Shown piece by piece: positions 16,199 to 32,000 of a stretch of 32,000 bases of DNA. The DNA is from Pseudodesulfovibrio mercurii (GTDB lineage Bacteria; Desulfobacterota; Desulfovibrionia; Desulfovibrionales; Desulfovibrionaceae). Numbering within the stretch: position 1 is the first letter of the stretch; every line of letters begins with the position of its first letter. The stretch spans positions 1,470,001 to 1,502,000 of the forward strand of contig NC_016803.1 in assembly GCF_000189295.2 (NCBI RefSeq), in the 5' to 3' direction. A program made the translations under genes and the position numbers. Under the pieces are notes generated by a model that saw only the letters and a list, made by a program, of their open reading frames with translations, did not search any database and was not told the origin of the DNA.

Positions 16199-16226
16199 TT
16201 GATTGATATTATTAGATAATTATACT
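16199..16226 (+). promoter_or_regulatory. Near-consensus sigma70 promoter pointing rightward
   Basis: -35 TTGATT (16199-16204), 16-nt spacer, -10 TATACT (16221-16226), inside the most AT-rich patch of the window. Confidence 0.5.
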
Positions 16227-16340
16227 TGCGTGATCTGTCGCAAATATCGTGTTGCCAGATATCCTTTTTGCTGGCGCGATATTGCCAAACCATTGCCATG
16301 GGCCTTGCGCATCCGAAACGGCGTATTCACGTCCGAAGCG

Positions 16341-16606
16341 CGGAAGGAAAGGGATGCCTGGGGGTGAGAGGGGGAACAGGCGGGAAAGGAGCCGTAAGGC
16401 TCAGAGGGGCGAAAGAAAAACCACAGGGAGTGGAAACGTGCAGACCGGGGGGGTGAGGGAAGGGAATAGGGAAGTAAATGGGAATGTGCAGGCCGAAAAG
16501 AAATGGACGGAGACAAGAACGGCAAGGGCAAAATGCCGACAAATGGGCGCGGGGCGGAACCATGGATGGGAATCGACGGAAGCGCCCACCGCTGCGTGGG
16601 AGCGCT
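16341..16606 (+). ncRNA. Purine-rich, GGA-repeat transcript candidate (a long 5' leader of the downstream gene or an independent sRNA)
   Basis: 18 GGA trinucleotides in 242 nt (16341-16582). About 80% purine on the + strand (12 pyrimidines counted in 16441-16500). An imperfect hairpin AGCGCCCAC/GTGGG(A)GCGCT at 16581-16606 is followed by TT. No credible ORF: the track ORF 16249..16674 is R/G/E/K low complexity. Confidence 0.3.
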
Positions 16607-16640
16607 TGAAAGGCTGGGCGGGCGCTGGTAGCCTGTCCCC

Positions 16641-17351: not shown

Positions 17352-17380
17352 CGAACCGCCCGAACGAAAGACGCTCCGGA

Positions 17381-17692
17381 TCAGTGGGCATCGCCCAGCA
17401 GGGCGACGCAGAGCTGGTCCACGCAGGAGGTGTTCTTCCTGCCGCAGGTGATGCCCTTGAGCTTGTCGATCACTTCCTCGACGGGCATGCCCTCCAGCAG
17501 GGCGGCAATGGCCTTGAGGTTGCCGTCGCACCCGCCGGTGAATTGCAGGCGGGTCAGGCAGCCGTCCTCGACCTTGTAGCGGATCAGCTTGGAACAGACG
17601 TTTTCGGGTTTGAAGACTTCACGGTCGTCAGCCTGGGCGGCGGCCATGCCGAAAGAAGAGAGCGGGGTGAGTTCGGAGAGATTGGCTTTCAT
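17381..17692 (-). CDS. TIGR03905-family TSCPD-domain protein (4-Cys)
   Basis: LQFTGGCDGNLKAIAALLEGMPVEEVIDKLKGITCGRKNTSCVDQLCVALL matches the F-GGC-GN...GI-CG-K-TSC-DQL pattern of this family. An alternative start exists at ATG 17647. Neither start has a strong RBS. Confidence 0.8.
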   Translation of the reverse strand: MKANLSELTPLSSFGMAAAQADDREVFKPENVCSKLIRYKVEDGCLTRLQFTGGCDGNLKAIAALLEGMPVEEVIDKLKGITCGRKNTSCVDQLCVALLGDAH

Positions 17693-18194
17693 GACGGAAG
17701 ATGCATGGGGTTGAGGTTGCGTTGACGGTTTTCGAGGCCGATTCCCGGTCCGGCGGATCTGCTGGCCAACCGTTTGCCGCCCTGCGGCGGTTGACGGTCC
17801 GGGACGAGGCCACCGGGACCCGGCGCGCCCGGCGTGCCGACGGAGGAGGCAACATACCCCCCGGAGGCATCCTGCGCAAGGACAAATCGCTCCCTTTTCC
17901 CACTCCCCGCCCCTTTGTATGCCACATAATTGTCAACCACAGTATCAATCCGATAACGCCCCCCTTTCTTCTTGAGCGAAGGCGCGAAAAGTCGCCATAT
18001 CAACGGGTTGAAACTTGGCCGCAGCCATTTGCCCCACCGCATGTTCTCAAAATGATACAAACGATGCCCCGCCAAAGGGTAACCCGACACGTCCCTTTCG
18101 GACCGTGGACGGACGGATCCGGGACCGGCTCCCGGCCCGGCCGAGGTCTGGTCGAACCGGGGCGAAAACGGCCGGAAGCAAGGCGGGTCAAGGG

Positions 18195-18219
18195 TTGCCG
18201 ATTTTTGCAATAACGGCAA
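18195..18219. promoter_or_regulatory. Inverted repeat TTGCCG-N13-CGGCAA, candidate activator site
   Basis: TTGCCG at 18195-18200 and CGGCAA at 18214-18219, centred ~90 bp upstream of the sigma54 -24 element at 18296. Confidence 0.3.
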
Positions 18220-18295
18220 AACAGAATGATGCATGCCATAATTGAATGATCGTTTTTTACATTTTGAAGAACTTAGACATCTAACTCCGTCGCGC

Positions 18296-18311
18296 TGGTA
18301 CGCATATTGCT
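18296..18311 (+). promoter_or_regulatory. Sigma54 -24/-12 promoter of the ABC-transporter/dihydropyrimidinase operon
   Basis: TGGTACGCATATTGCT against TGGCACG-N4-TTGCW, with one mismatch in the -24 box. It sits ~62 nt upstream of ATG 18373 and is preceded by AT-rich DNA (18225-18290). Confidence 0.7.
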
Positions 18312-18372
18312 CATGTTGTGCATATCAACAACGCACGTCTGCCATCCGAGCAGCGCCACACAAGGAGGACAT

Positions 18373-19446
18373 ATGCGCAGAAGGGAGTTCCTGAAATATT
18401 CGGCCATGGGCGCCATGGGCACCATGCTCGGCACGGTTCCGGGCCTGTCATGGGCCGCCGACAAAGCCGTGCACTGGCTGACCTGGGAAAACCTGGCCTA
18501 CGACAAGTACGTGGCCGACTTCACCAAATCCACCGGCATTTCCATTGAAAAGGGGTTCATCGGCTCCGATGACGAGCAGTTTGCCAAGATTCGCGCGGGC
18601 GGCGGGGCCGACTGGGACCTGATCACCCCCGGACTGGACAAGGTCGAGCTCTACGTGGCCGCCGACCTGCTCCAGCCCCTGGACCTCTCCAAGATCCCCA
18701 ACGCCGCCAAGCGGTACGCCCCGTTCATGAACACCCCGCTGGGCAAGAAGGACGGCCAGGTCTACGGCCTGCCCTTCTACTGGGGCATCAACCCCATCGT
18801 CTACCGCGCCGACCTCATGGACAAGGAGCCCGACTGGTCCACCCTGTTCGAGGGTGAGAAGTACAAGGGCCGCCTGGCCATGCGCGACTACGCCCTGGAG
18901 GCCATCGCCATCGCCGCCATGTACGTGGGCATCCCCCGCGAGCGCATCTTCAAGATGGACGACAAGGAGCTGGCCGAGTGCAAGAAGGCCTGCATCGCCC
19001 AGAAGAAGCTGCTGCGCACCTACTGGAACTCCATCGCCGACCTGACCAACCTGTTCGCCACCGGCGAGGTGGTCTGCGCCTTCTCCTGGGTCCCGCCCTA
19101 CTACGACCTGCGCGCCAAGGGCATCAACATGGGCATGGCCAAGCCCAAGGAAGGGGTCATCGGCTGGTGCGACACCTGCGCCATCCCCAAGGACGCCTCC
19201 CCCGAGGGAGCCGCCGCGGCCCACGAACTGATCAACTACGTCATCGGACCCGACTACGGCTACAAGCTCGCCCTGGACGGCCCCTACGCCATCTCCACCT
19301 CCACGGCCCGCGACAGGCTGACCCCCGAGGAGCAGGAGCGCATCTTCATCAAGGACATCGGCGTCATGGACAGCTTCGTCTGGAAGGAGAACCCGGCCGA
19401 CTACGGCAAGTGGGTGCGCATCTGGAACGAAGTCAAGGCCAGCTAG
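18373..19446 (+). CDS. Periplasmic substrate-binding protein of an ABC importer, PotD/PotF (polyamine-type) family, with a twin-arginine signal peptide
   Basis: Lies inside ORF 18307..19446. RBS AAGGAGG at 18362-18368, then ATG at 18373. MRRREFLKYSAMGAMGTMLGTVPGLSWAADK looks like a Tat signal. The mature part reads like the PotD family (WDLITPG, LQPLDLSKIPN, YWGINPIVYR). Confidence 0.8.
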   Translation: MRRREFLKYSAMGAMGTMLGTVPGLSWAADKAVHWLTWENLAYDKYVADFTKSTGISIEKGFIGSDDEQFAKIRAGGGADWDLITPGLDKVELYVAADLLQPLDLSKIPNAAKRYAPFMNTPLGKKDGQVYGLPFYWGINPIVYRADLMDKEPDWSTLFEGEKYKGRLAMRDYALEAIAIAAMYVGIPRERIFKMDDKELAECKKACIAQKKLLRTYWNSIADLTNLFATGEVVCAFSWVPPYYDLRAKGINMGMAKPKEGVIGWCDTCAIPKDASPEGAAAAHELINYVIGPDYGYKLALDGPYAISTSTARDRLTPEEQERIFIKDIGVMDSFVWKENPADYGKWVRIWNEVKAS

Positions 19447-19449
19447 TAC

Positions 19450-20570
<1,121 letters not shown>

Positions 20571-20574
<4 letters not shown>

Positions 20575-21458
20575 GCCTGAAGCGCATCGACCGCGTCCGG
20601 CAACTGACCCTGCTGGCCCTGACCGGGCCCAACGTCCTGTTCCTGGCCTTCTTTTGCGTGGCCCCCCTGGCCGTGCTCTTCAGCTACAGCTTTTTCCAGG
20701 TGGATTTCGTGGCCATCGTGCGCGATCCCACCCTGGCCAACTACGGCCGTGTCCTCGAAAGCTCGACCTACCGAGGCCTTGTGGTCAAGGCCCTGGTCTA
20801 CGGCATCGGCATCGCGGCCCTGTGCTCGGTCATCGCCTACCCCCTGGCCTTCTTCATCGCGAAAAAGGTCAAGGTCTACAAGGCCGCCCTGCTGACCCTG
20901 CTGCTCATCCCGCTGTACACCGGCGACCTGATCCGCATCTTCGCCTGGCGCGTGGTCCTCGGGGCCGAGGGCGTGCTCAACTCCCTGCTCATGTGGCTCG
21001 GGATCATCAAGGAGCCCATCTGGGTGCTCCTGTTCTCCCCCTTTTCCACGGTGGTGGTCCTGACCTACAACTACCTGCCCTTCATGGTCCTGCCCCTGTG
21101 GGCGGCCCTGGAGGCCATGGACAACTCCTATCTCGAAGCCGCCATGGACCTGGGCTGCCGCCACATGGCCACCTTCTTCAAGGTGGTCCTGCCCCTGACC
21201 GGCGCGGGACTCATCGCGGGCTTCATGATGGTCTTCGTCCTGGTGGTCGGCGACTACCTGACCCCGCAGCTCATCGGCGGGTCCTCGGGCGTGACCGTGA
21301 CCAGCGCCATCCACGACATGTTCGGCGCGGCCTTCGACTGGCCCACCGGCTCGGCGCTGGCCTGGGTGCTCCTGACCGCCATGGCCGCCTTCATCACGGC
21401 CACGGTCTATCTCTTCTACAAGTCCCCCTGGGGACGCGGCATCAGGGGGGCGAAATAA
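20571..21458 (+). CDS. ABC transporter permease, PotB-like (295 aa)
   Basis: ATG at 20571 overlaps the ATPase stop (ATGA). MSLKRIDRVRQLTLLALTGPNVLFLAFF... It has six hydrophobic segments and an EAA-type loop, YLEAAMDLGCRHMATFFKVVLPL. Confidence 0.88.
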
Positions 21459-22240
21459 TGCGCCTCTCCGGATGGGCCGCCCTGCGCGGCTACACCTTCG
21501 TGGTCTACGGTTTCGTCTATCTGCCGATCATGCTCATGGGCCTCTTTTCCCTGAACTCCTCGGACATGATCGCCTTCCCCCTGACCGGCTTCACCCTGGA
21601 CTGGTACAACCAGATCCTCCACGACGGCCGCATCTTCAAGGGACTCGTGACGACCATGGCCGTGGCCTTCCCGGTGACGATCATCACCACGGTGCTCGGC
21701 TCCATGGCCGCCCTGGTCCTGACCCGCCACAAGTTCAAGGGCAAGACCGCCTTCCTGGCCCTGCTCGTGCTGCCCTTCTTCGTGCCCAAGCTCATCTTCG
21801 CCATCGCCCAGGTGACCTTCCTCAACGACGTGGGCATCCCCAAGGGCCTCTACACCGTGTGGATCTCCCAGGCCATGATCATCCTGCCCTTCGTCACCGT
21901 GATCATCGCCTCGGTCCTGTTCCGCGTGGACAAGCGGCTGGAGGAGGCCGCCGGCGACCTCGGGGCCACTCCCTGGCAGACCTTCCGCCGGGTGACGCTC
22001 CCCCTGATGAAGAACGGCATCCTGGCCGGATCGTTCATCTCCTTCGTCCTGTCCAACGCCGAATACACCGTCTCCTACTTCACCAGCGGCCGGGCCCAGC
22101 CCCTGTCCGTACTGGTCGCCTCGGACTTCCGGTTCCACCTCTCCCCGAGCCTGAACGCCCTGGCCATGCTCATCGTCTTCTTCAACATCCTGGTCATCGT
22201 GATCAGCGAATGGTTCCGGCGGCGCTCCGTGCAGGCCTGA
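21458..22240 (+). CDS. ABC transporter permease, PotC-like (260 aa)
   Basis: ATG at 21458 shares one nt with the upstream TAA (TAATG). MRLSGWAALRGYTFVVYGFVYLPIMLM... EAA loop LEEAAGDLGATPWQTFRRVTLPLM. Confidence 0.88.
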   Translation: MRLSGWAALRGYTFVVYGFVYLPIMLMGLFSLNSSDMIAFPLTGFTLDWYNQILHDGRIFKGLVTTMAVAFPVTIITTVLGSMAALVLTRHKFKGKTAFLALLVLPFFVPKLIFAIAQVTFLNDVGIPKGLYTVWISQAMIILPFVTVIIASVLFRVDKRLEEAAGDLGATPWQTFRRVTLPLMKNGILAGSFISFVLSNAEYTVSYFTSGRAQPLSVLVASDFRFHLSPSLNALAMLIVFFNILVIVISEWFRRRSVQA

Positions 22241-22260
22241 CCGGACATCGAGGCAACACA

Positions 22261-23661
22261 ATGAAAATACTCATCAAAAACGGCCTGGTCGTGAACGCCG
22301 ACCGCTCGGAGCACGCGGACGTGCTCATCGACGGCCAAACCATCCGGGAAGTGGGCGCGGACCTGGCCGCGGGCCCGGACTTCCGCGTCATCGACGCCGG
22401 GGGCCTCATGGTCATCCCCGGCGGCATCGACCCGCACACCCACCTGGAGATGCCCACCCCGGTGACCCGCACCGCCGACGGCTACGACAACGGCGGCCGC
22501 GCGGCCCTGTCCGGCGGGACCACCACGGTCATCGACTTCGTCAACCCCAAGTACGGCCAGTCCTACCTCGAAGCCTACGACGTCTGGATGGAGCGGGCCG
22601 CCAAGGCCACCTGCAACTACTCCTTCCACGTCACGGTCTCCTGGTTCAACGACGAGGTCGCCCGGGAGATGCGCACCCTGGTGGAGGAACGCGGGGTCAA
22701 CTCCTTCAAGCACTTCACCACCTACAAGGGCTCCCTCATGCTCGAGCCCGAGCAGATGCTCGCCAGCTTCGCCCTGGCCCGCGAGCTGGGCGCGCTCTGC
22801 ACCGTGCACGCCGAAAACGACGAGATCATCACCTACATGCAGCGCAAGCTCCTGGAAAAGGGCATCACTCAGCCCAGGGGCCACGTCCTGTCCCGCCCGC
22901 CCATCGCCGAGGGCGAAGCCACCTACCGGGCCATCGCCCTGGCCAGAATCGCGGGCGCGCCCATCTACATCGTGCACATGAGCTGCGAGGACGCCCTGCA
23001 CGCGGTCGTCCGCGCCCAAGCCGCCGGGCAGGAGGTCTACGCCGAGTCCCTGTGCGGCCACCTGCTCCTGGACGAGTCCGTGTACTTCAACGATGACCCG
23101 GAAATCGCCGCCCGCTACGTCATGAGCCCGCCCTTCCGCTCCGCCGAACACCGCGAAGCGTTGTGGCAGGGGCTCGCCGACGGCCACATCCGGGTCATCG
23201 GCAGCGACAACTGCACCTTCACCCAGGCCCAGCGCAACCTGGGCCTCGACGACTTCACCAAGATTCCCAACGGCGCGCCCGGCCTCGAAGACCGCATGCG
23301 CATCGTCTTCAGCGAAGGCGTGGCCAAGGGCCGCCTCACCCCGGAACAGTTCGTCGCCGTGACCTCCACCAATGCCGCGAAAATCTTCAACATCCATCCG
23401 CGCAAGGGAGTCGTCGCGCCCGGCGCCGATGCCGACGTGGTCCTCTGGGACCCGAAAAAACAACACACCGTGTCGGTCAAGACCCACCGCCACGCCATCG
23501 ACTACAGCATCTTCGAAGGCATGACCTTCACCGGCTCGCCGACCCTGACCATCCTCAACGGCGACGTGGTCTTCGAAAACGACCTCGTCACCAGCAACCC
23601 CGGCCAGGGCCGATTCATCCCCCGCCCCCCGCGCCAACGCATCCCCCCCTGCCACAGCTGA
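22261..23661 (+). CDS. Dihydropyrimidinase / D-hydantoinase-type cyclic amidohydrolase (466 aa)
   Basis: MKILIKNGLVVNAD...VIPGGIDPHTHLEMP (HxH metal site). NSFKHFTTYKG gives the carboxylated-Lys context typical of hydantoinases. Also VHAEN, IYIVHMS and GSDNCTF. Confidence 0.9.
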   Translation: MKILIKNGLVVNADRSEHADVLIDGQTIREVGADLAAGPDFRVIDAGGLMVIPGGIDPHTHLEMPTPVTRTADGYDNGGRAALSGGTTTVIDFVNPKYGQSYLEAYDVWMERAAKATCNYSFHVTVSWFNDEVAREMRTLVEERGVNSFKHFTTYKGSLMLEPEQMLASFALARELGALCTVHAENDEIITYMQRKLLEKGITQPRGHVLSRPPIAEGEATYRAIALARIAGAPIYIVHMSCEDALHAVVRAQAAGQEVYAESLCGHLLLDESVYFNDDPEIAARYVMSPPFRSAEHREALWQGLADGHIRVIGSDNCTFTQAQRNLGLDDFTKIPNGAPGLEDRMRIVFSEGVAKGRLTPEQFVAVTSTNAAKIFNIHPRKGVVAPGADADVVLWDPKKQHTVSVKTHRHAIDYSIFEGMTFTGSPTLTILNGDVVFENDLVTSNPGQGRFIPRPPRQRIPPCHS

Positions 23662-23680
23662 CGCAGGCATGCCCGAAATG

Positions 23681-23723
23681 AAACGGCCGACGCGATCCTG
23701 GATCGCGTCGGCCGTTTCGTTTT
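23681..23723 (+). terminator. Rho-independent terminator of the ABC/dihydropyrimidinase operon
   Basis: AAACGGCCGACGCGATCC / GGATCGCGTCGGCCGTTT: arms of ~17-18 bp that nearly abut (23681-23717), followed by CGTTTT. It starts 20 nt after the stop at 23661. Confidence 0.8.
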
Positions 23724-23742
23724 GGAATGCCTCCGGCGGCCA

Positions 23743-23773
23743 GGGGGGAAACTTTTGGAAAAAGTTTCCCCCC
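23743..23773. repeat. 14-bp-arm palindrome GGGGGGAAACTTTT / AAAAGTTTCCCCCC
   Basis: Arms at 23743-23756 and 23760-23773. A third partly complementary segment, AAACTTTTT, lies about 20 nt downstream. Confidence 0.6.
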
Positions 23774-23916
23774 TGGACCCCCCTTCCAAACTTTTTGTGT
23801 GCCTTCGGCAAGGGCGTGCGGCCGCGGCAAGCCCCCTGTCTTTTCCTTTTGGAGCGATTCCGACAGCGGCTCTTTTACCGCGTTCGCACTAGGCTTTCGA
23901 GAGTGGGTCATCCGTG

Positions 23917-23988
23917 CATTTTCTCCTGGGGGGCTTTCATCCTCACGTAGACGGCTACGCTGCGGTGAAAGCCCCCCAGGAGAAAATG
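23917..23988. repeat. 23-bp perfect inverted repeat with a nested mini-hairpin; probable terminator of the minus-strand activator gene
   Basis: CATTTTCTCCTGGGGGGCTTTCA (23917-23939) pairs with TGAAAGCCCCCCAGGAGAAAATG (23966-23988). The 26-nt loop itself contains CGTAG-ACGG-CTACG (23946-23959). It lies 31 nt downstream of the stop at 24019. Confidence 0.6.
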
Positions 23989-24018
23989 TGCGGATGGCCC
24001 GCTATCGGAAGCCGCCCC

Positions 24019-25785
24019 CTATTCCAGCCCGTACCTCTTGATCTTGCGGTACAGCGTGGCGATGCCGATGCCCAGCTTGTTCGCCACACGTTCCTTGGCC
24101 GCCTTGGTGCCGGTCTCGTCGCCGAAGGCCTTGAGGGCCTGCTGGATGAGGGTGCGTTCCATGGTTTCGAGGTTGTAGTCGGCGTATTCGGATTCGCGCG
24201 CGCCGGAGCGGACCTTGAGGGGCAGGGACTCGCGGGTGATGACGGCCGGGGAATCGACCACGTTGGCCACGTATTCGATGGAGTTCTGCAATTCGCGAAC
24301 GTTGCCGGGCCAGTGGTATTCGCTGACCGCGGTCCAGAAGGACTCCTTGATGGTCAGGATTTCCTTGTCCAGCCGGTCCATGCTCTGTTCGAGGAAGACC
24401 TTGGACAGCAGGTGGATGTCCCGGGGCCGTTCGCGCAGGGGCGGGATGTGGATGGGGATGACGTTGAGACGATAGTAGAGGTCTTCGCGGAAGGTGCCGT
24501 TGTGGACCATCTCCTCGAGGTTGCGGTTGGTGGCCGAAACCACGCGCACGTCGATGGCCGTGGGCTGGGTGGAGCCCAGCCGGGTGACCTCCCGCTGTTC
24601 CAGGGCGCGCAGGAGCTTGGCCTGGAGGTGCAGGGGCATGTCGCCTATCTCGTCGAGGAACAGGGTGCCGGTGTTGGCCTGCTCGAAGCGGCCCATCTTG
24701 CCCTTGGGGTTGGCCCCGGTGAAGGCCCCGCCCACGTAGCCGAAGAGCTCGCTTTCGAGCAGGGTCTCGGGGATGGCCCCGCAGTTGATGGCAACGAACG
24801 GGCCCTCCTTGCGGCCGCCCTCCTCGTTCAGGGCGCGGGCCACGAGCTCCTTGCCCGTGCCGGACTCGCCGGTGACCAGGACCGAGGAGTTGGAGTCCGC
24901 GAACCGGGCCACCTGTTCCTTGAGGGTGACGATGACGTCCGAGGTGCCGAGGATGGCGTCCAGGCCGAGACGCTCGTGGCTGGAGGCCAGGCGCAGGGCG
25001 TCGTCGTGCATGAGCTGGGCGTCGCGGAACATGAACATGCTCGAACTCTCGCCGTGCTGGAGGCGGTACTCGTTCCCGGCCACGTCGTGGGAGCGGCCCA
25101 GGAGGCTGACGGTGTATTCGGTGTACTGGAGCAGCCGGTTTTCGCCGCGCTTCAGGCGGACGGTGATGGCGTCCTGGCCCTCCAGGGGGAAGTCGAGGAT
25201 CTGCTGGGCGGCGCGGTTGGAGCGGACGATGCGCCCGTCCTTGGCCAGCAGGAGCACGCCCTCGTCCACCTTGTCCACCACGGTCTCGAGCAGCTGGCCC
25301 AGGGCGCGGCTGCGGGCGAACTCCATGGACTCGACCACCTTGGAGGCGAGGATGTCGGCCATTTGGGCCAAAAAGTCGAAAAAGACCTCGAAGTTGTCCT
25401 GGATGTGGGCCTTCTGCTCCTCGGTGAAGCAGACGAAGCCGATGACCCCGACCACCGTGCCCTGGTACAGGATGGGCGTGCTCATCTCGAAGGTCTCGTC
25501 GCAGGCCTGCCAGTTGGGGCAGTCGGCGCAGAACTCGGAGAAGCCGGGCTCGCGGATGACCAGAGGCCGCCCGGTCTTGAGCACCTGGCGGTACACGCCG
25601 CTGGCCGAGGACATCTGCTTGCCCACCAGAGAGGCGAACCGCCCGGTCCCGGCCACCCGGTAGAGGTTGCCGTCCACGATCTCCACGTCCACGCGCAGCA
25701 CCCGCGAGATGACCGCCGCGTACTGGGTGGCCGCCCCGCTGATGTCCCACAGGTCCTGGGGCACGTTCTCCACGTTCACTTCCAT
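24019..25785 (-). CDS. Sigma54-dependent transcriptional activator (EBP): Cys-containing GAF/PocR-like sensor, PAS-like region, AAA+ domain and Fis-type HTH (588 aa)
   Basis: Lies inside ORF 24019..26025. The start is placed at ATG 25785-25783 (MEVNVENVPQDLWDISG), with GGAG ~10 nt upstream. Walker A GESGTGKE; sigma54-contact motif GGAFTGA; Walker B LFLDEIGDM; RELQN; C-terminal HTH AKERVANKLGIGIATLYRKIKRYGL. Confidence 0.92.
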   Translation of the reverse strand: MEVNVENVPQDLWDISGAATQYAAVISRVLRVDVEIVDGNLYRVAGTGRFASLVGKQMSSASGVYRQVLKTGRPLVIREPGFSEFCADCPNWQACDETFEMSTPILYQGTVVGVIGFVCFTEEQKAHIQDNFEVFFDFLAQMADILASKVVESMEFARSRALGQLLETVVDKVDEGVLLLAKDGRIVRSNRAAQQILDFPLEGQDAITVRLKRGENRLLQYTEYTVSLLGRSHDVAGNEYRLQHGESSSMFMFRDAQLMHDDALRLASSHERLGLDAILGTSDVIVTLKEQVARFADSNSSVLVTGESGTGKELVARALNEEGGRKEGPFVAINCGAIPETLLESELFGYVGGAFTGANPKGKMGRFEQANTGTLFLDEIGDMPLHLQAKLLRALEQREVTRLGSTQPTAIDVRVVSATNRNLEEMVHNGTFREDLYYRLNVIPIHIPPLRERPRDIHLLSKVFLEQSMDRLDKEILTIKESFWTAVSEYHWPGNVRELQNSIEYVANVVDSPAVITRESLPLKVRSGARESEYADYNLETMERTLIQQALKAFGDETGTKAAKERVANKLGIGIATLYRKIKRYGLE

Positions 25786-25998
25786 CGTCCACCAACTCCA
25801 ATGGGGTCCCGTCACCCCCCGTATCAGAACGATACCGACATTGCGCCGCAACCATTGGCGGAGGATCGCAACAACCCGGCATCGCGTCGTTTTAGCCCGG
25901 CGGCAGGGAAAGACGGCCGCCGGTATCAAAATGAAAACACCTGTGACATAAACGTAATCAGCCCGGTGTTCAAGCGTTATTGCGCGGTTCCCATCCGG

Positions 25999-26012
25999 TG
26001 CGACGGGTCGCA
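25999..26012. promoter_or_regulatory. Palindrome TGCGAC-GG-GTCGCA, candidate EBP binding site
   Basis: Perfect 6-bp arms, 84-97 bp upstream of the sigma54 -24 element at 26096, in the divergent EBP/TRAP intergenic region. Confidence 0.3.
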
Positions 26013-26095
26013 AGGATTCACCCAATTGTCAGGCATACAATGACTTTTGACCAAAACACCAAAACGGCAAAAAAGTGCGCGGCGGACGTGAACAC

Positions 26096-26111
26096 TGGCA
26101 CGGTATCTGCT
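26096..26111 (+). promoter_or_regulatory. Sigma54 -24/-12 promoter of the TRAP transporter operon
   Basis: TGGCACGGTATCTGCT against TGGCACG-N4-TTGCW. The -24 box is perfect and the -12 box is CTGC. It sits ~48 nt upstream of ATG 26159. Confidence 0.75.
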
Positions 26112-26158
26112 TCGCATGGGTGTCCTTGCACAAGGGTATCACTTCAACCCACCATACT

Positions 26159-26698
26159 ATGCAAACACAGAAAACAACCCCATTCGTCAGCCTGGCCGCC
26201 GCCGTCGAGCGGTTCGCCTACCGGCTGAACTACGTCCTGGAGCGGCTCTGCGCCCTCCTGGTGGCCGCCATGATCGGCGTGGTCTGGTTCGGCATCGTCG
26301 AGCGCTACGCCCTGGCCCTGGGAGCCACCTGGACCGAGGAGCTGGCCCGCTACATAATGATCTGGGCCGCGCTCCTGGCCGTGCCCTGCTGCGCCTACCG
26401 GCGCGAGCACATCGGCCTGGACCTGGTCTTCTCCCGTCTCCCGCTGAACTGGCAGTTGCCCGCGCGCATGGTCCTCGACCTGCTCGGCCTGTGCTTCTTT
26501 CTGTTCCTGGCGTACTACGGCGTGACCATGGCCAAGTCGGGCGCGAACCAGTTCGCGACCATCTTCGGCATGACCATGTTCGTGCCCTTCACCGCCGTGC
26601 CCATCACCGCCGGGCTGACGGTCATCCAGATCGGAGCGGTCATGATCCGCGACGCCGCCCGGATCACACCCATGTTCGCCAGGAAGGAGGCCGCCTGA
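26159..26698 (+). CDS. dctQ: TRAP transporter small permease (DctQ family, 179 aa)
   Basis: Lies inside ORF 26075..26698, whose 5' part overlaps the sigma54 promoter, so the start is placed at ATG 26159 (MQTQKTTPFVSLAAAVERF). It has four hydrophobic segments and a TWTEELARYIMIW motif typical of DctQ. Weak RBS. Confidence 0.8.
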   Translation: MQTQKTTPFVSLAAAVERFAYRLNYVLERLCALLVAAMIGVVWFGIVERYALALGATWTEELARYIMIWAALLAVPCCAYRREHIGLDLVFSRLPLNWQLPARMVLDLLGLCFFLFLAYYGVTMAKSGANQFATIFGMTMFVPFTAVPITAGLTVIQIGAVMIRDAARITPMFARKEAA

Positions 26699-27981
26699 TG
26701 CTGACCGTCGCCATCGTCTTCTTCGGTTTGATGCTCATCGGCGTGCCCATCGGCTTCGTGCTCGGCATCGCGGGCGTCGTCGGCCTGGTCCAGGTGGGCG
26801 GGGACAACTTCCTGGTCATGGCCCCCAAGCGGTTTTTCGAGGGGCTCAACCTGTTCACCTTCATGGCCATGCCCTTCTTCATCCTGGCGGGCGAGATCAT
26901 GAACCGCGTGGGCATGACCCAGCGCATCGCCAACCTGGCCGACGCCCTGGTGGGCTACATGCGCGGCGGCCTGGCCCACTCGAACATGCTCGCCTCGGTG
27001 CTCTTCGCGGGCATGACCGGCGCGGCCGTGTCGGATGCCGCCGCCTTCGGCAACACCCTGGTCCCGGCCATGGTCAAGCAGGGCTACACCCGGCCCTTCG
27101 CCTGCGCGGTCACGGCCGCCGGGTCGATCATCGGCCCGACCATCCCGCCGTCCAACCTGATGGTCATCTACGGCTCGCTGGCGGGCGTGTCCATCGCCGG
27201 GCTGTTCGCGGCGGGCATCCTGCCCGGCCTGCTCATCTGCCTGGTGTGCATGGCGCTGATCGTGGCGCTGGGACGCAAGCTCGGCCTGCCCAAGAAGGAG
27301 GGCAGCCCGTCGCTCCGGGAAATCCTCTCCGCCTTCAAGGGCTCCCTGCTCGCCCTGATCATGCCCGCCATCATCCTGGGCGGCATCCTCGGCGGCATCG
27401 TCACCCCCACCGAGGCGGCGGCCATCGCGGTCTTCTACGCCCTGTTCGTAGGCGTGGTCGTCCACCGCAACCTGACCTTCAACGACATCCTGGGGATGCT
27501 CATCCGCACGGCCCGGATCACGGGCGTGGTCTTCCTGATCATCGCCTCGGCCTCGATCCTGAGCTGGTGGATGACCTTCATGCAGATTCCCCAGCAGATC
27601 GCGGACGCGTTCCTGACCCTGTCCACCACCCCGTGGATGATCAAGGCCATGATCCTGGTCATGCTCCTGATCATCGGCATGTTCATGGACATCAACGCGG
27701 CGCTCATCATCCTGACGCCCATGCTCGGCACCCTGACCCAGGCCATCGGCATGAACCCGGTGCACGCGGGCGTAATGATCGTCCTGACCCTGAACATATC
27801 GCTCATGACCCCGCCCGTGGGGGCCTGCATCTTCGTGCTCTCCTCGGTCACAGGCGAACGCATAGAGCGCATCAGCGCCTCCCTGTGGCCGTTCATACTC
27901 GTGGAGGTGGGCGTGCTCGTCATAACCACCTTCTGGACGGACCTGGCCATGTTTTTCCCCAAACTTCTGCTCGACATGTAG
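26698..27981 (+). CDS. dctM: TRAP transporter large permease (DctM family, 427 aa)
   Basis: RBS AGGAAGGAGG upstream. ATG at 26698 shares one nt with the upstream TGA (TGATG). MLTVAIVFFGLMLIGVPIGFVLG..MAMPFFILAGEIMN..GGLAHSNMLASVLFAGMTGAAVSD. Confidence 0.92.
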   Translation: MLTVAIVFFGLMLIGVPIGFVLGIAGVVGLVQVGGDNFLVMAPKRFFEGLNLFTFMAMPFFILAGEIMNRVGMTQRIANLADALVGYMRGGLAHSNMLASVLFAGMTGAAVSDAAAFGNTLVPAMVKQGYTRPFACAVTAAGSIIGPTIPPSNLMVIYGSLAGVSIAGLFAAGILPGLLICLVCMALIVALGRKLGLPKKEGSPSLREILSAFKGSLLALIMPAIILGGILGGIVTPTEAAAIAVFYALFVGVVVHRNLTFNDILGMLIRTARITGVVFLIIASASILSWWMTFMQIPQQIADAFLTLSTTPWMIKAMILVMLLIIGMFMDINAALIILTPMLGTLTQAIGMNPVHAGVMIVLTLNISLMTPPVGACIFVLSSVTGERIERISASLWPFILVEVGVLVITTFWTDLAMFFPKLLLDM

Positions 27982-28007
27982 CGGAACAAACCATGAGAGA
28001 GGATCGT

Positions 28008-29042
28008 ATGAGAATCGGTAAAAAAGTGATCGTGCTGCTCGCCGTGGCGGCGCTGATGCTGTGCTCGGCCCAGGGCGCCCTGGCCGCCAAGGTCATCAAG
28101 ATGCATCACCTGAACAAGAACGGCGCCTTCGACAACCCGTCCGGCGCGGCCGCCGTGGTCTTCAAGAACCTGGTGGAGTCCGGGACCAACGGCGACGTCC
28201 AGGTCCAGATCTTCCCCAGCGGCCAGCTCGGCAAGGACGCCGAAGTGGTCCAGCAGGTCAAGGACGGCATCATCCAGCTCGGCGTGCACTCCGTGGGCGC
28301 GGTGGGCAGCGTCTACCCCATGATCTCCGTGCTCGACGTGCCCTTCGCCTTCCCCAACCACGCCGTGGCCTATGAGGTCTTCGACGGACCCTTCGGCCAG
28401 AAGCTGGCGGGCGACATCACCGGCAAGACCGGCATGAAGTGCCTGGGCTTCTCCGACTCCGGCGGGTTCTTCCAGTTCACCAACTCCAAGCGGCCGATCA
28501 AGACCCTGGAGGACATGAAGGGGCTGAAGATCCGCACCATGGGCCTGGACACCCACAAGATGCTGGTCTCCGCCCTGGGCGGCCAGCCCGTGTCCATCGC
28601 CTGGTCCGAGGTCTACACCTCCCTGCAGACCGGCGTGGCCGACGGCCAGATGAACCCGGTGCCCATCGTCGAGTTCGCCAAGCTGTATGAGGTCCAGAAG
28701 TACCTGACCATCTCCAACCACCTGTTCGCGCCCCACGTCTGGCTGATGAACATGGACTTCTACAACTCCCTGACCCCGGCCGAGCGCACCGTCGTCGAGA
28801 GCGCCGCCAAGACCGCCATCGTGGTCTCCCGCGGCATCGCCAACGCCATCGAGGCGTCCGACCGCGGCCTGCCCTTCCTGTCCACCAAGATGGAGATCTA
28901 CACCCTGCCCGAGGCCGAGAAGGAGCGCTTCCGCGCCGCCGCCCAGCCGGTCGTCCTGAAGTACCTCGAAGAGAACTTCGGCGACGAAGGCAAGGCCATG
29001 CTGAACGCCTTCCTGGACGCCATCAAAGAGGCCTCCAAGTAA
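28008..29042 (+). CDS. dctP: TRAP transporter periplasmic solute-binding protein (DctP family, 344 aa)
   Basis: RBS GAGAGAGGA, then ATG at 28008. An alternative in-frame ATG is at 27993. Signal peptide MRIGKKVIVLLAVAALMLCSAQGALA. Also LKIRTMG, WSEVYTSLQTGVADGQMNP and KYLTISNHLF. Confidence 0.9.
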   Translation: MRIGKKVIVLLAVAALMLCSAQGALAAKVIKMHHLNKNGAFDNPSGAAAVVFKNLVESGTNGDVQVQIFPSGQLGKDAEVVQQVKDGIIQLGVHSVGAVGSVYPMISVLDVPFAFPNHAVAYEVFDGPFGQKLAGDITGKTGMKCLGFSDSGGFFQFTNSKRPIKTLEDMKGLKIRTMGLDTHKMLVSALGGQPVSIAWSEVYTSLQTGVADGQMNPVPIVEFAKLYEVQKYLTISNHLFAPHVWLMNMDFYNSLTPAERTVVESAAKTAIVVSRGIANAIEASDRGLPFLSTKMEIYTLPEAEKERFRAAAQPVVLKYLEENFGDEGKAMLNAFLDAIKEASK

Positions 29043-29062
29043 CCCGATCCAAGACCATGACG

Positions 29063-29090
29063 CCGGGCGGCGGGACTTCCCGCCGCCCGG
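29063..29090 (+). terminator. GC hairpin after dctP (terminator or attenuator candidate)
   Basis: CCGGGCGGCGGG (29063-29074), loop ACTT, CCCGCCGCCCGG (29079-29090): a perfect 12-bp stem. No U-tract. Confidence 0.45.
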
Positions 29091-29115
29091 CCATTCAACC
29101 TCAGCCTACGACGAC

Positions 29116-30399
29116 ATGAACAAGACACCCCGACCCGATCACGTCACAGGGATGCGCTGCACCATCTGCGGCAAGACCTACCTCCCCGGCGAGGTGGACT
29201 ACGTCTGCCCCGACCACGGCAACGAAGGCATCCTGGACATCCAATACGACTACGACGCCATCGGGCGACAGATTTCCCCCCAGACCCTGGCCCGGGACAA
29301 GACGTGCAGCCAGTGGCGCTACCGCCCGCTCCTGCCGGTCCTGCCGGAGACCCCGGCGCCCGCCGCCGCCGTGGGCTGGACCCCGCTCTACGAGAGCCCC
29401 CGCCTGGCGAGCGCCCTGCGCCTCGACACCCTGTTCGTCAAGGACGACTCGCGCCAGCCCACCGGCTCCCTCAAGGACCGGGCCAGCGCCCTGGCCGTGA
29501 TGAAGGCGCGCGAGGCCGGCGCGGACATGATCACCACCGCCTCCACGGGCAACGCGGCCGCCGCCCTGGCGGGCATGTGCGCGGCCAGCGACATGCCGTG
29601 CACCATCTTCGTGCCCCGCTCGGCCCCCAGGGCCAAGGTGGCCCAGCTCCTGGCCTACGGGGCGCGGGTCTTCCTGGTGGACGGCAGCTACGACGACGCC
29701 TTCGAGCTGTGCCTCAAGGCCGCCGCCGAGTACGGCTGGTACAACCGCAACACCGGCTTCAACCCGTACATGGCCGAGGGCAAGAAGACCGCCGCCTTCG
29801 AGATCTGCGAGCAGCTGGACTGGCGCTGCCCGGACGCGGTCTTCGTGGGCGTGGGCGACGGCTGCATCATCTCCGGCCTGCACAAGGGGTTCCTGGACAT
29901 GTACCGCCTGGGCTGGATCGACCGGTTGCCCCGGCTCATGGGCGTCCAGGCCGAGGGCAGCGACTTCCTGTACCGCTGCTGGAAGGCTGGGGCCGACCCG
30001 GTGACCTTCCCGGCCATCCGGGCCCACACCGTGGCCGACAGTATTTCCGCGGGGCTGCCCCGCGACCGCAAGAAGGCCATGGAGAGCGTGACCGACACGG
30101 GCGGCGCGTTCCTGCGCGTGTCCGACGAGGCCATCCTCCAGGCCATCCCCGAACTGGCCAGGGCCACCGGCGTGTTCGCCGAGCCCGCCGGGGCCTCGCC
30201 CCTGGCAGGGCTGCACGCGGCCGTGGACCAGGGACTGGTCCGCAGCGACGCCGTCTGCGTGCTCCTGGTGACCGGCTCGGGGCTGAAGGACGTGGACGCG
30301 ACCATCCGCGCCTGCGCCGCCGAGCCCAGGGTCATCGCCCCGACCCTCGACGCCCTGGACAAGGCCATGAACACCGCCACGCGAAACCAAGAATCATAA
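29116..30399 (+). CDS. Threonine-synthase-like fold-type-II PLP enzyme with an N-terminal Cys4 zinc-ribbon (427 aa)
   Basis: CTICGKTYLPGEVDYVCPDHG (CxxC...CxxH/C ribbon). PLP-Lys context QPTGSLKDRASALAV (canonical TGSFKDR). Also TASTGNAAAALA and GVGDGCIISG. Confidence 0.8.
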   Translation: MNKTPRPDHVTGMRCTICGKTYLPGEVDYVCPDHGNEGILDIQYDYDAIGRQISPQTLARDKTCSQWRYRPLLPVLPETPAPAAAVGWTPLYESPRLASALRLDTLFVKDDSRQPTGSLKDRASALAVMKAREAGADMITTASTGNAAAALAGMCAASDMPCTIFVPRSAPRAKVAQLLAYGARVFLVDGSYDDAFELCLKAAAEYGWYNRNTGFNPYMAEGKKTAAFEICEQLDWRCPDAVFVGVGDGCIISGLHKGFLDMYRLGWIDRLPRLMGVQAEGSDFLYRCWKAGADPVTFPAIRAHTVADSISAGLPRDRKKAMESVTDTGGAFLRVSDEAILQAIPELARATGVFAEPAGASPLAGLHAAVDQGLVRSDAVCVLLVTGSGLKDVDATIRACAAEPRVIAPTLDALDKAMNTATRNQES

Positions 30400-30419
30400 C
30401 CGATAAAGGAAGGACAACC

Positions 30420-31886
30420 ATGCTTGACCTGACCATCAACCCGCAGGGCCTGGAAAGCGCCGTGGCCTGCGCGCGCGAGAAGAATATCATCATCCCCACC
30501 CTGGAACAGATGTGCCACCCGGAGACGATCCCGGCCGCCATCCGGGAGAAGCTCGGCTCCGTCGGGCTGTGGGACCTCAACCCCCTGAACCTGTTCCGCA
30601 TCACCTGGAAGAACGAGCCCGCCGTCAGCGGCGGCAAGTACGCGGGCGTGAACCACATCGAGCTGCCCTCCTCCCTGACCGGGGTCCCGGCGCGCATCGT
30701 CATGCTCGTCGGCAAGTGGTTCCCCACCGGGGCGCACAAGGTCGGCGCGGCCTTCGGCTGCCTGGCCCCGCGCCTGGTCACCGGCCAGTTCGACCCGCGC
30801 AAACAGAAGGCGGTCTGGCCGTCCACCGGCAACTACTGCCGGGGCGGTGCCTACGACTCCAACCTGCTCGGCTGCGAGTCCATCGCCATCCTGCCCGAGG
30901 GCATGAGCCAGGAGCGCTTCGACTGGCTGGCCGCCGTGGCGGGCGAGACCATCAAAACCCCCGGCTCCGAGTCCAACGTCAAGGAGATCTTCGACAAGTG
31001 CTGGGAGCTGCGCAAGTCCGGCGACGACATCATGATCTTCAACCAGTTCGACGACATGGGCAACTACCTCTGGCACTACACCGTGACCGGCCGGGCCATG
31101 GTCGAGCTGATCGAGCAGCTGACCGACGACGCGGACAAGCGGTTCAAGGGCGTGGTCCTGTCCACCGGCTCGGGCGGCACCCTGGCCAGCGGCGACTACC
31201 TCAAGCAGCAGTACGCCCACGTCAAGGTGGCCGCCTGCGAGGCCCTGCAGTGCCCCACCCTGCTGAACAACGGGTTCGGCGCGCACCGCATCGAGGGCAT
31301 CGGCGACAAGCACGTGCCCTGGGTGCACAACGTGCGCAACACCGACATGGTCATCGCCGTGGACGACGAGGTGCCCATGAACCTCATCCGGCTGTTCAAC
31401 GAGCCCGCGGGCGTCGCGGCCCTCAAGGAGCACGGCGTCCCGGCGGAGATCGCCGACAACCTGCACCTGCTGGGCATCTCCTCGGTGGCCAACATGATCT
31501 CGGCCGTCAAGTTCGCCAAGTACTACGAGTTGGGCGAGGACGACGTGGTCCTGAGCGTGGCCACGGACTCCATGGAGATGTACCAGAGCCGCCTGGCCGA
31601 ACTGACCGCCGAGAAGGGCGCGTACGACGAGCAGGACGCCGCCTACTCGCGCGGCATGCTCGCGGCCACGACCATCGACAACATGGAGGAGCTCGGCTAC
31701 TACGACCGCAAGCGCATCCACAACCTCAAGTACTACACCTGGATCGAGCAGCAGGGCATGGCCTTTGCCGACATCCAGGCCCAGTGGTACGACGAGCACT
31801 ACTGGGAAAACATCCAGCGGCTCGCCCCGGAGGTGGACAAGCTGATCGACGCCTTCAACGCCAAGACCGGCCTGCTCGAGGGCTAG
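30420..31886 (+). CDS. Atypical long (488 aa) fold-type-II PLP-dependent enzyme (cysteine-synthase/Trp-synthase-beta superfamily), specific function unknown
   Basis: Lies inside ORF 29304..31886. RBS AAAGGAAGGA, then ATG at 30420 (MLDLTINPQGLESAVACAREK). Candidate PLP-Lys context WFPTGAHKVGAAFGCL. Also WPSTGNYCRGGAY and LSTGSGGTLASGDY (Gly-rich phosphate loop). A ~150-aa C-terminal extension goes beyond a normal CysK/CysM. Confidence 0.7.
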   Translation: MLDLTINPQGLESAVACAREKNIIIPTLEQMCHPETIPAAIREKLGSVGLWDLNPLNLFRITWKNEPAVSGGKYAGVNHIELPSSLTGVPARIVMLVGKWFPTGAHKVGAAFGCLAPRLVTGQFDPRKQKAVWPSTGNYCRGGAYDSNLLGCESIAILPEGMSQERFDWLAAVAGETIKTPGSESNVKEIFDKCWELRKSGDDIMIFNQFDDMGNYLWHYTVTGRAMVELIEQLTDDADKRFKGVVLSTGSGGTLASGDYLKQQYAHVKVAACEALQCPTLLNNGFGAHRIEGIGDKHVPWVHNVRNTDMVIAVDDEVPMNLIRLFNEPAGVAALKEHGVPAEIADNLHLLGISSVANMISAVKFAKYYELGEDDVVLSVATDSMEMYQSRLAELTAEKGAYDEQDAAYSRGMLAATTIDNMEELGYYDRKRIHNLKYYTWIEQQGMAFADIQAQWYDEHYWENIQRLAPEVDKLIDAFNAKTGLLEG

Positions 31887-31896
31887 GGAGGCGACC

Positions 31897-32000
31897 ATGC
31901 CGAACAAGGAAAAGTACTGCAATCTGAGCGTGGCCCTGTGCCAGGAGCTGGTCTCCCTGCCGAGCCTGTCCGGCGAGGAGGGCGACGTGGCCAAGGCCCT
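31897..32000 (+). CDS. M20-family metallopeptidase/amidohydrolase, YgeY/ArgE/DapE-like (N-terminal 34 aa only; continues beyond the window)
   Basis: RBS GGGAGG at 31886-31891, then ATG at 31897. MPNKEKYCNLSVALCQELVSLPSLSGEEGDVAKAL matches the L..LV.IPS.SG.E..VA N-terminal pattern of M20 enzymes. The fragment is too short for certainty. Confidence 0.45.
   Translation, partial: MPNKEKYCNLSVALCQELVSLPSLSGEEGDVAKA

Follow-up and report, generated by a model that had tools for sequence, protein, structure and literature searches.

A YgeV-type activator between two sigma54-promoter operons in Pseudodesulfovibrio mercurii: a probable single regulon for ureide catabolism

We analyzed 32 kb of DNA from Pseudodesulfovibrio mercurii (from here on, the window), in which the gene for a sigma54-dependent activator of the YgeV family lies between two operons. 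One operon encodes an ATP-binding cassette (ABC) importer followed by a dihydropyrimidinase, and the other a tripartite ATP-independent periplasmic (TRAP) transporter followed by two pyridoxal 5'-phosphate (PLP) enzymes and the start of an M20 hydrolase. Based on sequence comparison, it is very probable that the two operons share the activator. We also favor, with less assurance, the view that they form one YgeV-type regulon and carry out one ureide catabolic route, the lower branch of the reductive urate pathway. That the substrates would be ureides built on 2,3-diaminopropionate we hold only somewhat more readily than not. Four comparative lines back the idea of one regulon and one pathway: paired boxes upstream of both promoters, a motif that accompanies the activator family as a whole, a metagenomic contig in which the genes of both operons form one string, and the fit between the enzymes and the known pathway. 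A preliminary description of this DNA had proposed one regulon for a cyclic ureide or amide, such as a dihydropyrimidine. Its reading of one regulon and one ureide pathway finds support in the comparison, while dihydropyrimidines seem less likely substrates than ureides based on 2,3-diaminopropionate.

Two predicted sigma54 promoters with paired upstream boxes

The window was compared with loci that we label L001 to L062. These include P. thermohalotolerans (L001), Desulfovibrio caledoniensis (L004), a Pseudodesulfovibrio metagenome-assembled genome (MAG, L005), P. cashew (L060), Escherichia coli K-12 NC_000913.3 (L056), the MAG GCA_018432935.1 (L061), and a contig from Joint Genome Institute metagenome 3300027985 (L062). 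The Desulfovibrionaceae loci sampled for synteny are L001-L008, L055 and L060. Every gene call in the window is upheld by Pfam and NCBIfam profile matches, which confirm all the assignments of the preliminary description (an importer like PotD/A/B/C with a hydantoinase-type enzyme, and dctQMP followed by PLP enzymes). The feature extends beyond the range given there, from about 17890-17942, where the cassette edge and the distal box lie, to beyond position 32000. All features are collected in Table 1.

Sigma54 promoters had been proposed at 18296 and 26096. Both are exactly at these positions, and they are the only strict matches in the window: the pattern TGGYACG-N5-TGCW occurs twice in 32 kb where 0.11 matches are expected, and none of 100 shuffled sequences had at least two. 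Both promoters have GG and GC dinucleotides 10 nt apart in a TGGCAC-N5-TTGCW-like sequence, and they precede the start codons at 18373 and 26159 by 62 nt and 48 nt, respectively. In distant Desulfovibrionaceae, the TRAP promoter takes the variant form TGGCATGTTCTGTGCT. By motif, placement and conservation, we predict both elements to be sigma54-dependent promoters. A sigma70 promoter scan of positions 23600-26200 gave no match and did not locate the activator's own promoter.

The GTATCAAAAYGATAC box emerged when the region between the activator gene and dctQ was aligned with its counterparts in P. thermohalotolerans and a Desulfovibrionaceae MAG. Allowing up to three mismatches, the box has four matches in 32 kb, all of them upstream of the two promoters (17942 and 18044 for the ABC operon, 25821 and 25923 for the TRAP operon). 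The number expected is 0.22, and four matches were found in 0 of 100 shuffles. At both promoters the spacing between the two boxes is exactly 102 bp, and all four boxes fall in the range of 80-400 bp from the promoter that is typical of sites for activators of this class. The pairing recurs in other genomes: in six Pseudodesulfovibrio-type loci (128 kb), all 20 matches belong to ten pairs, 101-102 bp apart, at these same two promoter types. In footprint alignments, the conserved islands are the boxes and the -24/-12 elements. The core of the distal TRAP box is invariant in L001, L003, L004, L005 and L060 and present in more distant Desulfovibrionaceae as well, which retain one box (GTATCAAAATGATAT); the ABC boxes in L005 and L060 have one mismatch only. 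We considered and rejected a duplication of the upstream regions as the origin of the boxes. Pairwise alignment of the two regions of the window finds no overall homology, which means that the boxes they share are no remnant of such an event.

The preliminary description had instead singled out two palindromes, TTGCCG-N13-CGGCAA (18195-18219) and TGCGAC-GG-GTCGCA (25999-26012), and had taken the difference between them as a caveat to co-regulation. Both palindromes are present, but they are not conserved in L001, L003, L004 and L005, and we rejected them as binding sites. Since neither is conserved, the caveat becomes moot. We also find one exact match in the window to the integration host factor (IHF) consensus, where 0.12 are expected. 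It sits between the two ABC boxes and not between the boxes and the promoter, and we draw no conclusion from it.

The activator and its candidate operator across the YgeV family

The activator aligns with E. coli YgeV over 595 columns at 40% identity (E = 3e-144). The alignment begins at residue 12 in the window protein and at residue 10 in YgeV, and therefore takes in the sensor domain. The motifs GESGTGKE, FLDEIGD and GGAFTGA are all present. The closest named relatives are those of P. thermohalotolerans (90% identity) and of P. sediminis and P. cashew (both 85%), and Clostridia, Tissierellia, Tepidanaerobacter and some spirochaetes often encode full-length homologues with 45-50% identity. 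The YgeV family has no curated model, and we judged membership by full-length similarity; the named activator families (PrdR, PrpR, NifA, NtrC and others) were rejected, with all scores far below the NCBIfam cut-offs and PrdR as the best match. A tblastn search with the AAA+ core identifies a single sigma54 activator in the window, which bears out the earlier statement that the gene at 24019-25785 on the minus strand is the only one. In every Desulfovibrionaceae locus sampled, the activator gene is divergent from the string of genes that starts with dctQ. A gene of the YgeY, YgeX, HyuA or SsnA type lies within 10 kb of the activator homologue in 42 of 55 loci; the window has two such neighbors, the dihydropyrimidinase and the beginning of the YgeY-family M20 hydrolase.

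An AlphaFold model of activator residues 1-199 (predicted local distance difference test score of 86) matches GAF domains, among them those of NifA and Nlh2, two other activators. A GAF domain loop with the pattern C-x2-C-P-x4-C (residues 86-95; window 25500-25530, minus strand) is invariant in 12 diverse homologues and kept in YgeV. A fourth cysteine of the domain (C119) is conserved in 12 of the 12 homologues and replaced in E. coli. This cysteine cluster may be a metal, Fe-S or redox site.

Using an alignment of the sensor domain, we gathered 44 Firmicutes and Spirochaete loci. Beside the YgeV-like genes of Firmicutes and spirochaetes, a palindrome TTATCAAAATGATAA (TTATCA-N3-TGATAA) is found in two to three copies just upstream of a sigma54-like promoter. 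With at most one mismatch, 91 of the 104 matches in the 44 loci fall within 350 bp upstream of a sigma54-like promoter. E. coli K-12 has a one-mismatch copy (TTATCATAATGATAA) between mocA and ygfK, at about 3,015,789 of NC_000913.3 and 183 bp upstream of the sigma54-like TGGTGCGATTGTTGCT; the ygeW promoter TGGCACACTTATTGTT is preceded by degenerate copies. In L056, these boxes and promoters are at 17790-17804, 17973-17988, 7942-7985 and 8157-8172; the Firmicutes and spirochaete examples are in L012-L047. The recognition helix of the helix-turn-helix domain has a sequence, LGIGIATLYRKIK, that is common to the window activator, its Firmicutes homologues and YgeV. This association of box and activator across phyla is the main reason why we assign the boxes to this activator and not to another protein.

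In the literature searched, YgeV itself figures only as a putative activator, its regulon being inferred (PMC10602906; PMC9426417). Sigma54 promoters have been reported upstream of ygeWXY, with YgeV as the presumed activator (PMC10602906). We did not find the box sequence in the literature searched. The papers on the reductive urate pathway have nothing on a YgeV operator or on transporters (PMC12507026; bioRxiv 10.1101/2025.04.24.650524), and hydantoin, TRAP and related genes go unmentioned in the sigma54 regulome paper on D. vulgaris (PMC4641369). With this locus, the YgeV family gains a concrete candidate operator, also for its poorly understood E. coli member.

Synteny and enzymes point to one pathway

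In the metagenomic contig L062 (1-15300), the genes of both operons form a single string. Twelve co-directional genes encode DctQMP, PLP enzyme 1, PLP enzyme 2, the M20 hydrolase, an Amidohydro_3 protein, and then the binding protein, ATPase, two permeases and dihydropyrimidinase of the ABC module, with 94 bp between the two modules. The proteins are 60-84% identical to those of the window and L001. The contig has a G+C content of 51% and a GntR/FCD regulator in front of the string; it has no sigma54 promoter, box or YgeV-like gene. This arrangement suggests that, in another organism, the pathway came under a regulator of a different class.

In every Desulfovibrionaceae locus sampled, the TRAP operon has the order dctQ, dctM, dctP, PLP enzyme 1, PLP enzyme 2, M20, Amidohydro_3. 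Gene order in relatives had been put forward earlier as a check on the idea of a joint regulon: the unit formed by the activator and the TRAP operon is kept throughout these loci, while the ABC/dihydropyrimidinase unit occurs only in some of them. For the M20 hydrolase, cut by the window end, the L001 orthologue scores 464 bits with NF009555, against a cut-off of 321. The Amidohydro_3 protein at the end of the relatives' TRAP operon is a D-aminoacylase homologue, with N-acyl-D-glutamate deacylase 3GIP/3GIQ as its best solved match. The same 3GIP/3GIQ structure is the template that was used to define UacY (PMC12507026).

In the reductive urate pathway, HyuA opens 5-ureidomethylhydantoin and 5-ureido-dihydrouracil, UacY or YgeW then gives albizziin, and YgeY together with YgeX takes albizziin to pyruvate (Li et al. 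2025, PMC12507026). The enzymes of the locus map onto these steps in order, the ring opener being in the ABC operon and the enzymes that remove ureido groups in the TRAP operon. Going by gene content, only the lower branch of the pathway is predicted to be encoded at the locus. The dihydropyrimidinase, the candidate ring opener, is 41% identical to HyuA. Its best solved structure is the S. meliloti dihydropyrimidinase 3DC8 (E = 1.9e-153), and its metal-ligand motifs DPHTH (HxH), FKHF, VHAEN, VHMS and SD all align with 3DC8 and 5YKD. At the catalytic Asp, HyuA, 3DC8 and 5YKD have TDH, and relatives (S/T)DH, where the window enzyme has SDN (residues 316-318; 23206-23214), which may be a subfamily signature related to substrate.

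YgeX has no homologue in the window, and the YgeX model NF006058 gives PLP enzyme 1 only 59 bits against a cut-off of 276. PLP enzyme 1 scores 289 bits with PRK08197 (cut-off 303), and its best solved structure is threonine synthase 2zsj (8e-60). For PLP enzyme 2, only the core (residues 120-335) matches a solved structure, cysteine synthase (1e-19). Beside YgeV-like genes, PLP enzyme 1 and YgeX exclude each other: 15 loci have only PLP enzyme 1, 29 only YgeX, and none has both, which suggests a non-orthologous displacement. The 488-aa PLP enzyme 2 is found together with PLP enzyme 1 in 14 loci, and three others (L009, L013 and L041) have PLP enzyme 2 but not PLP enzyme 1. These two uncharacterized enzymes are candidates to replace diaminopropionate ammonia-lyase, and the locus further offers two candidate ureide-binding transport proteins.

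Other neighborhoods tie the same families together. In Proteobacteria, homologues of the ABC importer (four subunits, 51-76% identical; binding proteins 67-76%) are beside YgeX-like genes: next after the importer come genes for a YgeX-like lyase (39-40% identity to the E. coli enzyme), an M20 hydrolase and a CN-hydrolase. In Firmicutes, L017 has the activator, YgeX, M20, an amidohydrolase, an NCS1 permease, a hydantoin racemase, a hydantoinase and a UacY-like enzyme, and L036 has the activator, YgeX, M20, an SSF symporter and a UacY-like enzyme. Clusters with just the lower branch and their own transporter are therefore not unique to this locus.

As a separate observation, the MAG locus L061 (1-13424) has an ABC importer homologue, with a binding protein 73% identical to that of the window, followed by a hydantoinase-like gene. 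These genes are approximately 3 kb from xanthine-dehydrogenase-type genes (Ald_Xan_dh_C, FAD_binding_5, XdhC), in what would be a further link of the importer family to purine catabolism.

The ABC importer and dihydropyrimidinase as a cassette

In a blastn comparison, P. thermohalotolerans aligns colinearly with window positions 7237-17910 and 24015-32000 and lacks precisely 17911-24014. The missing segment holds both ABC boxes, the promoter, the five genes and the 3' hairpins, with the left breakpoint after ...CGCAAGGACAAA. This absence identifies a cassette of 6.1 kb, equipped with regulatory sites of its own. We find it in the window, L004, L005 and L060, in the same layout and downstream of the activator gene. 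Other relatives lack the cassette, and the core regulon can therefore do without it. Nothing stands out in the G+C content of the cassette, so that composition says nothing for or against a recent transfer. The locus offers what would be a clean example of regulon growth by capture of a whole cassette, with boxes, promoter, importer and enzyme, beside the activator gene.

At the right edge of the cassette, three long hairpins, with arms of 26, 22 and 59 nt, occupy the 357 bp that separate the convergent genes for the dihydropyrimidinase and the activator. They are probable terminators, and a terminator-like site is found on the minus strand at 24002-23990. L004 has approximately 550 extra bases in this gap. 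An Rfam search of 17000-32000 at the gathering threshold gave zero matches, so no known riboswitch or leader is present there.

The two binding proteins have different export signals. The ABC binding protein (18373-18460) begins with MRRREFLKYS, a textbook twin-arginine translocation (Tat) signal, and the DctP signal is of the ordinary Sec type. Searches of solved structures with the ABC binding protein and with DctP returned no informative ligand.

Proposed regulon and pathway

Putting these comparisons together, we propose the following mechanism. The activator, a one-component protein with a C-terminal helix-turn-helix domain of the Fis type, would bind the GTATCAAAAYGATAC box pairs, 102 bp apart, upstream of both sigma54 promoters. 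Its GAF domain would sense a pathway compound, leading to the ATP-driven opening of sigma54-RNA polymerase complexes at 18296 and 26096. Since the distal TRAP box is 36 bp from the activator start codon, the activator probably also regulates its own gene through it. The ABC importer would bring in an uncharged cyclic ureide, for which 5-ureidomethylhydantoin and 5-ureido-dihydrouracil are the most plausible candidates, and the dihydropyrimidinase would open the ring to give 2,3-diureidopropionate. TRAP binding proteins generally recognize carboxylates, and the TRAP system may directly import anionic ring-opened forms, namely diureidopropionate and albizziin. The UacY-like D-aminoacylase homologue and the YgeY-family hydrolase would strip both ureido groups to leave 2,3-diaminopropionate, which the two PLP enzymes, in place of the YgeX lyase, may convert to pyruvate and ammonia. 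The two importers, which the preliminary description had found unusual for one pathway, would be two entry points for compounds of different charge. A lower branch without the purine-reducing upper branch suggests scavenging, either of intermediates from other anaerobes or of plant albizziin.

A broader claim can be put forward only tentatively, and we doubt that it holds in all its parts. The Pseudodesulfovibrio group and many Firmicutes with just the lower branch may live partly on leaked ureides (5-ureidomethylhydantoin, 2,3-diureidopropionate, albizziin). They might do so with ABC importers for the neutral ring and TRAP importers for the anions, under one YgeV-type sensor with a cysteine-bearing GAF domain, and with a new PLP route from albizziin or 2,3-diaminopropionate to pyruvate that displaces YgeX; TTATCA-N3-TGATAA would then also be the operator of E. 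coli YgeV.

It was not until 2025 that the reductive urate pathway was elucidated, in gut bacteria. The locus presents its lower, ureide-cleaving half as what would be a separate regulon, equipped with transporters, in environmental sulfate reducers, and points to cross-feeding on nitrogen-rich products of purine breakdown in anoxic sediments. The architecture of the locus is itself ordinary for sigma54 systems; what is useful is the family-wide candidate operator, the cassette capture and the implied cross-feeding.

Alternative explanations

Several observations weigh against one YgeV-type regulon for one lower-branch route. On the regulatory side, two of the window's four boxes depart from the motif at 3 or 2 positions, the ABC boxes are rather distant from their promoter (252 and 354 bp), a different protein could in principle bind the box, and neither P. 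thermohalotolerans nor more distant relatives have the cassette. On the enzymatic side, the M20 hydrolase is 31% identical to E. coli YgeY and below the TIGR03526 cut-off (246 against 321.5). The dihydropyrimidinase is nearer to the canonical enzyme (3DC8) than to HyuA, so that dihydrouracil or other 5-substituted hydantoins could still be its substrates. The PLP enzymes have no characterized close relative, which makes the end of the pathway a guess. Finally, tblastn with E. coli queries against the window and L001-L008 found no homologue of XdhD, XdhA, YgfK, SsnA, YgeW, YqeA or YgeX.

The alternative that survives best keeps one YgeV-type regulon and changes the compounds, to another family of ureides or amides. 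We consider it unlikely, yet deserving of attention. In a pyrimidine version, dihydrouracil or dihydrothymine would be opened to products such as N-carbamoyl-beta-alanine. In a D-hydantoin version, 5-substituted D-hydantoins, N-carbamoyl- or N-acyl-D-amino acids would be processed to amino acids that the two PLP enzymes deaminate, a natural form of the "hydantoinase process". The ring opener indeed passes the TIGR02033 model and is closest to the dihydropyrimidinases of S. meliloti and Pseudomonas, the Amidohydro_3 protein is a generic D-aminoacylase homologue, M20 enzymes include carbamoylases, and the PLP enzymes resemble threonine and cysteine synthases more than diaminopropionate ammonia-lyase. 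On the other side, we see neither a PydA-type reductase nor a beta-alanine aminotransferase. The M20 hydrolase falls in the YgeY family, the activator family is tied to YgeX/YgeY/HyuA/SsnA clusters in the 42 of 55 loci described above, homologues of the ABC importer adjoin YgeX-like lyases, and the exclusion between PLP enzyme 1 and YgeX suggests the same end product. These features weigh against another family of compounds.

A second alternative separates the two operons. The activator would control the TRAP operon only, the cassette would respond to a sigma54 activator encoded elsewhere, and the boxes would be coincidental or bound by a different protein. In favor of this, the cassette is mobile and close relatives lack it, its ABC boxes in the window are the weaker matches, and its homologues in Proteobacteria and in L062 are under RpiR- or GntR-type regulators without a sigma54 promoter. 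Set against this, all four boxes in 32 kb are at the two promoters, the 101-102 bp pairing is found at both promoters in four other genomes too, with ABC boxes only one mismatch away in L005 and L060, the cassette is always immediately downstream of the activator gene where both occur (L004, L005, L060 and the window), and no second activator was found in the window. We regard independent regulation as improbable, and retain the shared activator.

The weakest alternative, an ordinary polyamine PotABCD importer next to an unrelated housekeeping pyrimidine amidohydrolase in a neighborhood without functional meaning, is highly improbable: PotD and PotF are the best named matches of the ABC binding protein, but its scores (PotD 81 bits against a cut-off of 582, PotF 64 against 636) are so far below the equivalog cut-offs that we rejected a polyamine identity, the five genes are closely packed into one operon that a sigma54 promoter precedes, and the pairing of ABC importer and dihydropyrimidinase recurs in L061 and in L062, where it is fused to the TRAP, PLP, M20 and amidohydrolase genes.

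Feature coordinates and remaining content of the window

Table 1. Features of the locus, in window coordinates. Boxes are candidate binding sites and promoters are predictions; locus labels are as defined in the text.
Feature	Position	Strand	Evidence and remarks
Cassette of ~6.1 kb: box pair, sigma54 promoter, ABC importer, dihydropyrimidinase, 3' hairpins	17890..24015		blastn against L001
Distal candidate box, ABC promoter	17942..17956	+	GTATCAATCCGATAA; kept in L004, L005 and L060; 354 bp upstream of promoter
IHF-consensus match	17998..18010	+	TATCAACGGGTTG; sole exact match in window; block kept in L004
Proximal candidate box, ABC promoter	18044..18058	+	TTCTCAAAATGATAC; TTATCAAAATGATAC at the same place in L005; 252 bp upstream of -24
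Predicted sigma54 promoter, ABC/dihydropyrimidinase operon	18296..18311	+	TGGTACGCATATTGCT; identical in L004, TGGTATGCAATTTGCT in L005
ABC binding protein, PotD/PotF fold	18373..19446	+	SBP_bac_8 3.7e-27; RRREFLK twin-arginine signal
ABC ATPase, TOBE_2 domain	19450..20574	+	Pfam
ABC permease 1	20571..21458	+	Start overlaps ATPase stop codon
ABC permease 2	21458..22240	+	Pfam
Dihydropyrimidinase/D-hydantoinase	22261..23661	+	TIGR02033 561 bits, cut-off 393
Three long hairpins in convergent gap	23673..24013		Arms 23673-23725, 23735-23781, 23892-24013
YgeV-family sigma54 activator: GAF, PAS-like linker, AAA+, HTH_8	24019..25785	-	Sigma54_activat PF00158 8.3e-71; HTH_8 3.5e-06
Distal candidate box, TRAP promoter	25821..25835	+	GTATCAGAACGATAC; 275 bp upstream of promoter; 36 bp upstream of activator start codon
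Proximal candidate box, TRAP promoter	25923..25937	+	GTATCAAAATGAAAA; within longer conserved block; 173 bp upstream of -24
Predicted sigma54 promoter, TRAP operon	26096..26111	+	TGGCACGGTATCTGCT; kept in L001, L003, L004, L005 and L060
TRAP small membrane subunit DctQ	26159..26698	+	PF04290
TRAP large membrane subunit DctM	26698..27981	+	PF06808
TRAP binding protein DctP	27993..29042	+	PF03480; nearest solved structures are DctPs with uninformative ligands
PLP enzyme 1, threonine-synthase-like, with N-terminal Cys-rich segment	29116..30399	+	PALP 4.2e-80
PLP enzyme 2, 488 aa, cysteine-synthase-like core, N- and C-terminal extensions	30420..31886	+	cysK 100 bits, cut-off 351
YgeY-family M20 hydrolase, first 35 codons, cut by window end	31897..32000	+	MPNKEKYCNLSVALCQELVSLPSLSGEEGDVAKA matches L001 and L004 M20 N-termini

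The rest of the window (1-17700) has two-component genes, a symporter, a homologue of a PEP-utilizing enzyme and a TSCPD gene, none of them related to the pathway. A third sigma54-like motif, TGGCATGCGAGTTGCT, is found at 2919-2934 on the plus strand, with one mismatch to TGGCACG-N4-TTGCW. It directly precedes two response-regulator genes (2918-3421 and 3442-4341, the latter also with a CBS domain), which are followed by a Na/sulfate-type symporter (4369-6219). The window encodes no cognate activator for this motif.

Comparison with known systems

The best characterized relative of the locus is the E. coli cluster of YgeV (IsrR), ygeW-ygeX-ygeY-hyuA-yqeA and ygfK-ssnA-ygfM-xdhD, which encodes the reductive uric acid/2,8-dioxopurine pathway (PMC12507026; bioRxiv 10.1101/2025.04.24.650524). 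The two have in common an activator of the same family (40% identity) divergent from an operon with a sigma54 promoter, a hydantoinase, a YgeY-family M20 hydrolase, and the same type of box. Unlike E. coli, the locus is without XdhD, YgfM, YgfK, SsnA, YgeW, YqeA and YgeX; it has two dedicated high-affinity importers, of the TRAP and ABC types, and two other PLP enzymes instead of YgeX; its hydantoinase is of the canonical dihydropyrimidinase type, and its host is a sulfate reducer. In the uricolytic variant of Clostridioides difficile, UacY, a D-aminoacylase homologue, replaces YgeW and YqeA (PMC12507026). The Amidohydro_3 protein of the relatives is likewise a D-aminoacylase homologue, and was likened to UacY through the 3GIP/3GIQ template and not through the UacY sequence. 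The locus differs from the C. difficile system in that the upper pathway (XdhD, UacX, SsnA) and YgeX were not found in it.

With the polyamine importers PotABCD and PotFGHI, the ABC importer shares the gene set and the fold of the binding protein; it differs from them in the PotD and PotF equivalog scores and in a genomic context that points to ureide catabolism. The hyu clusters of the "hydantoinase process" in Agrobacterium, Arthrobacter and Pseudomonas have, as the locus does, a D-hydantoinase, carbamoyl-removing enzymes and dedicated uptake. Unlike the locus, they use carbamoylases of the CN-hydrolase or AmaB type and NCS1 (Mhp1) permeases, and we know of none under sigma54 or YgeV control.

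The Firmicutes clusters L017 and L036 are uncharacterized, and we found no description of them in the literature searched. They differ from the locus in having other transporter families, YgeX in place of the two PLP enzymes, and one operon instead of two. In common with it, they have a YgeV-like activator (45-46% identical), an M20 hydrolase of the same subfamily (59-60%), a UacY-like enzyme (54-59%), a sigma54 promoter and a transporter of their own, with none of the purine-reducing enzymes within 10 kb.

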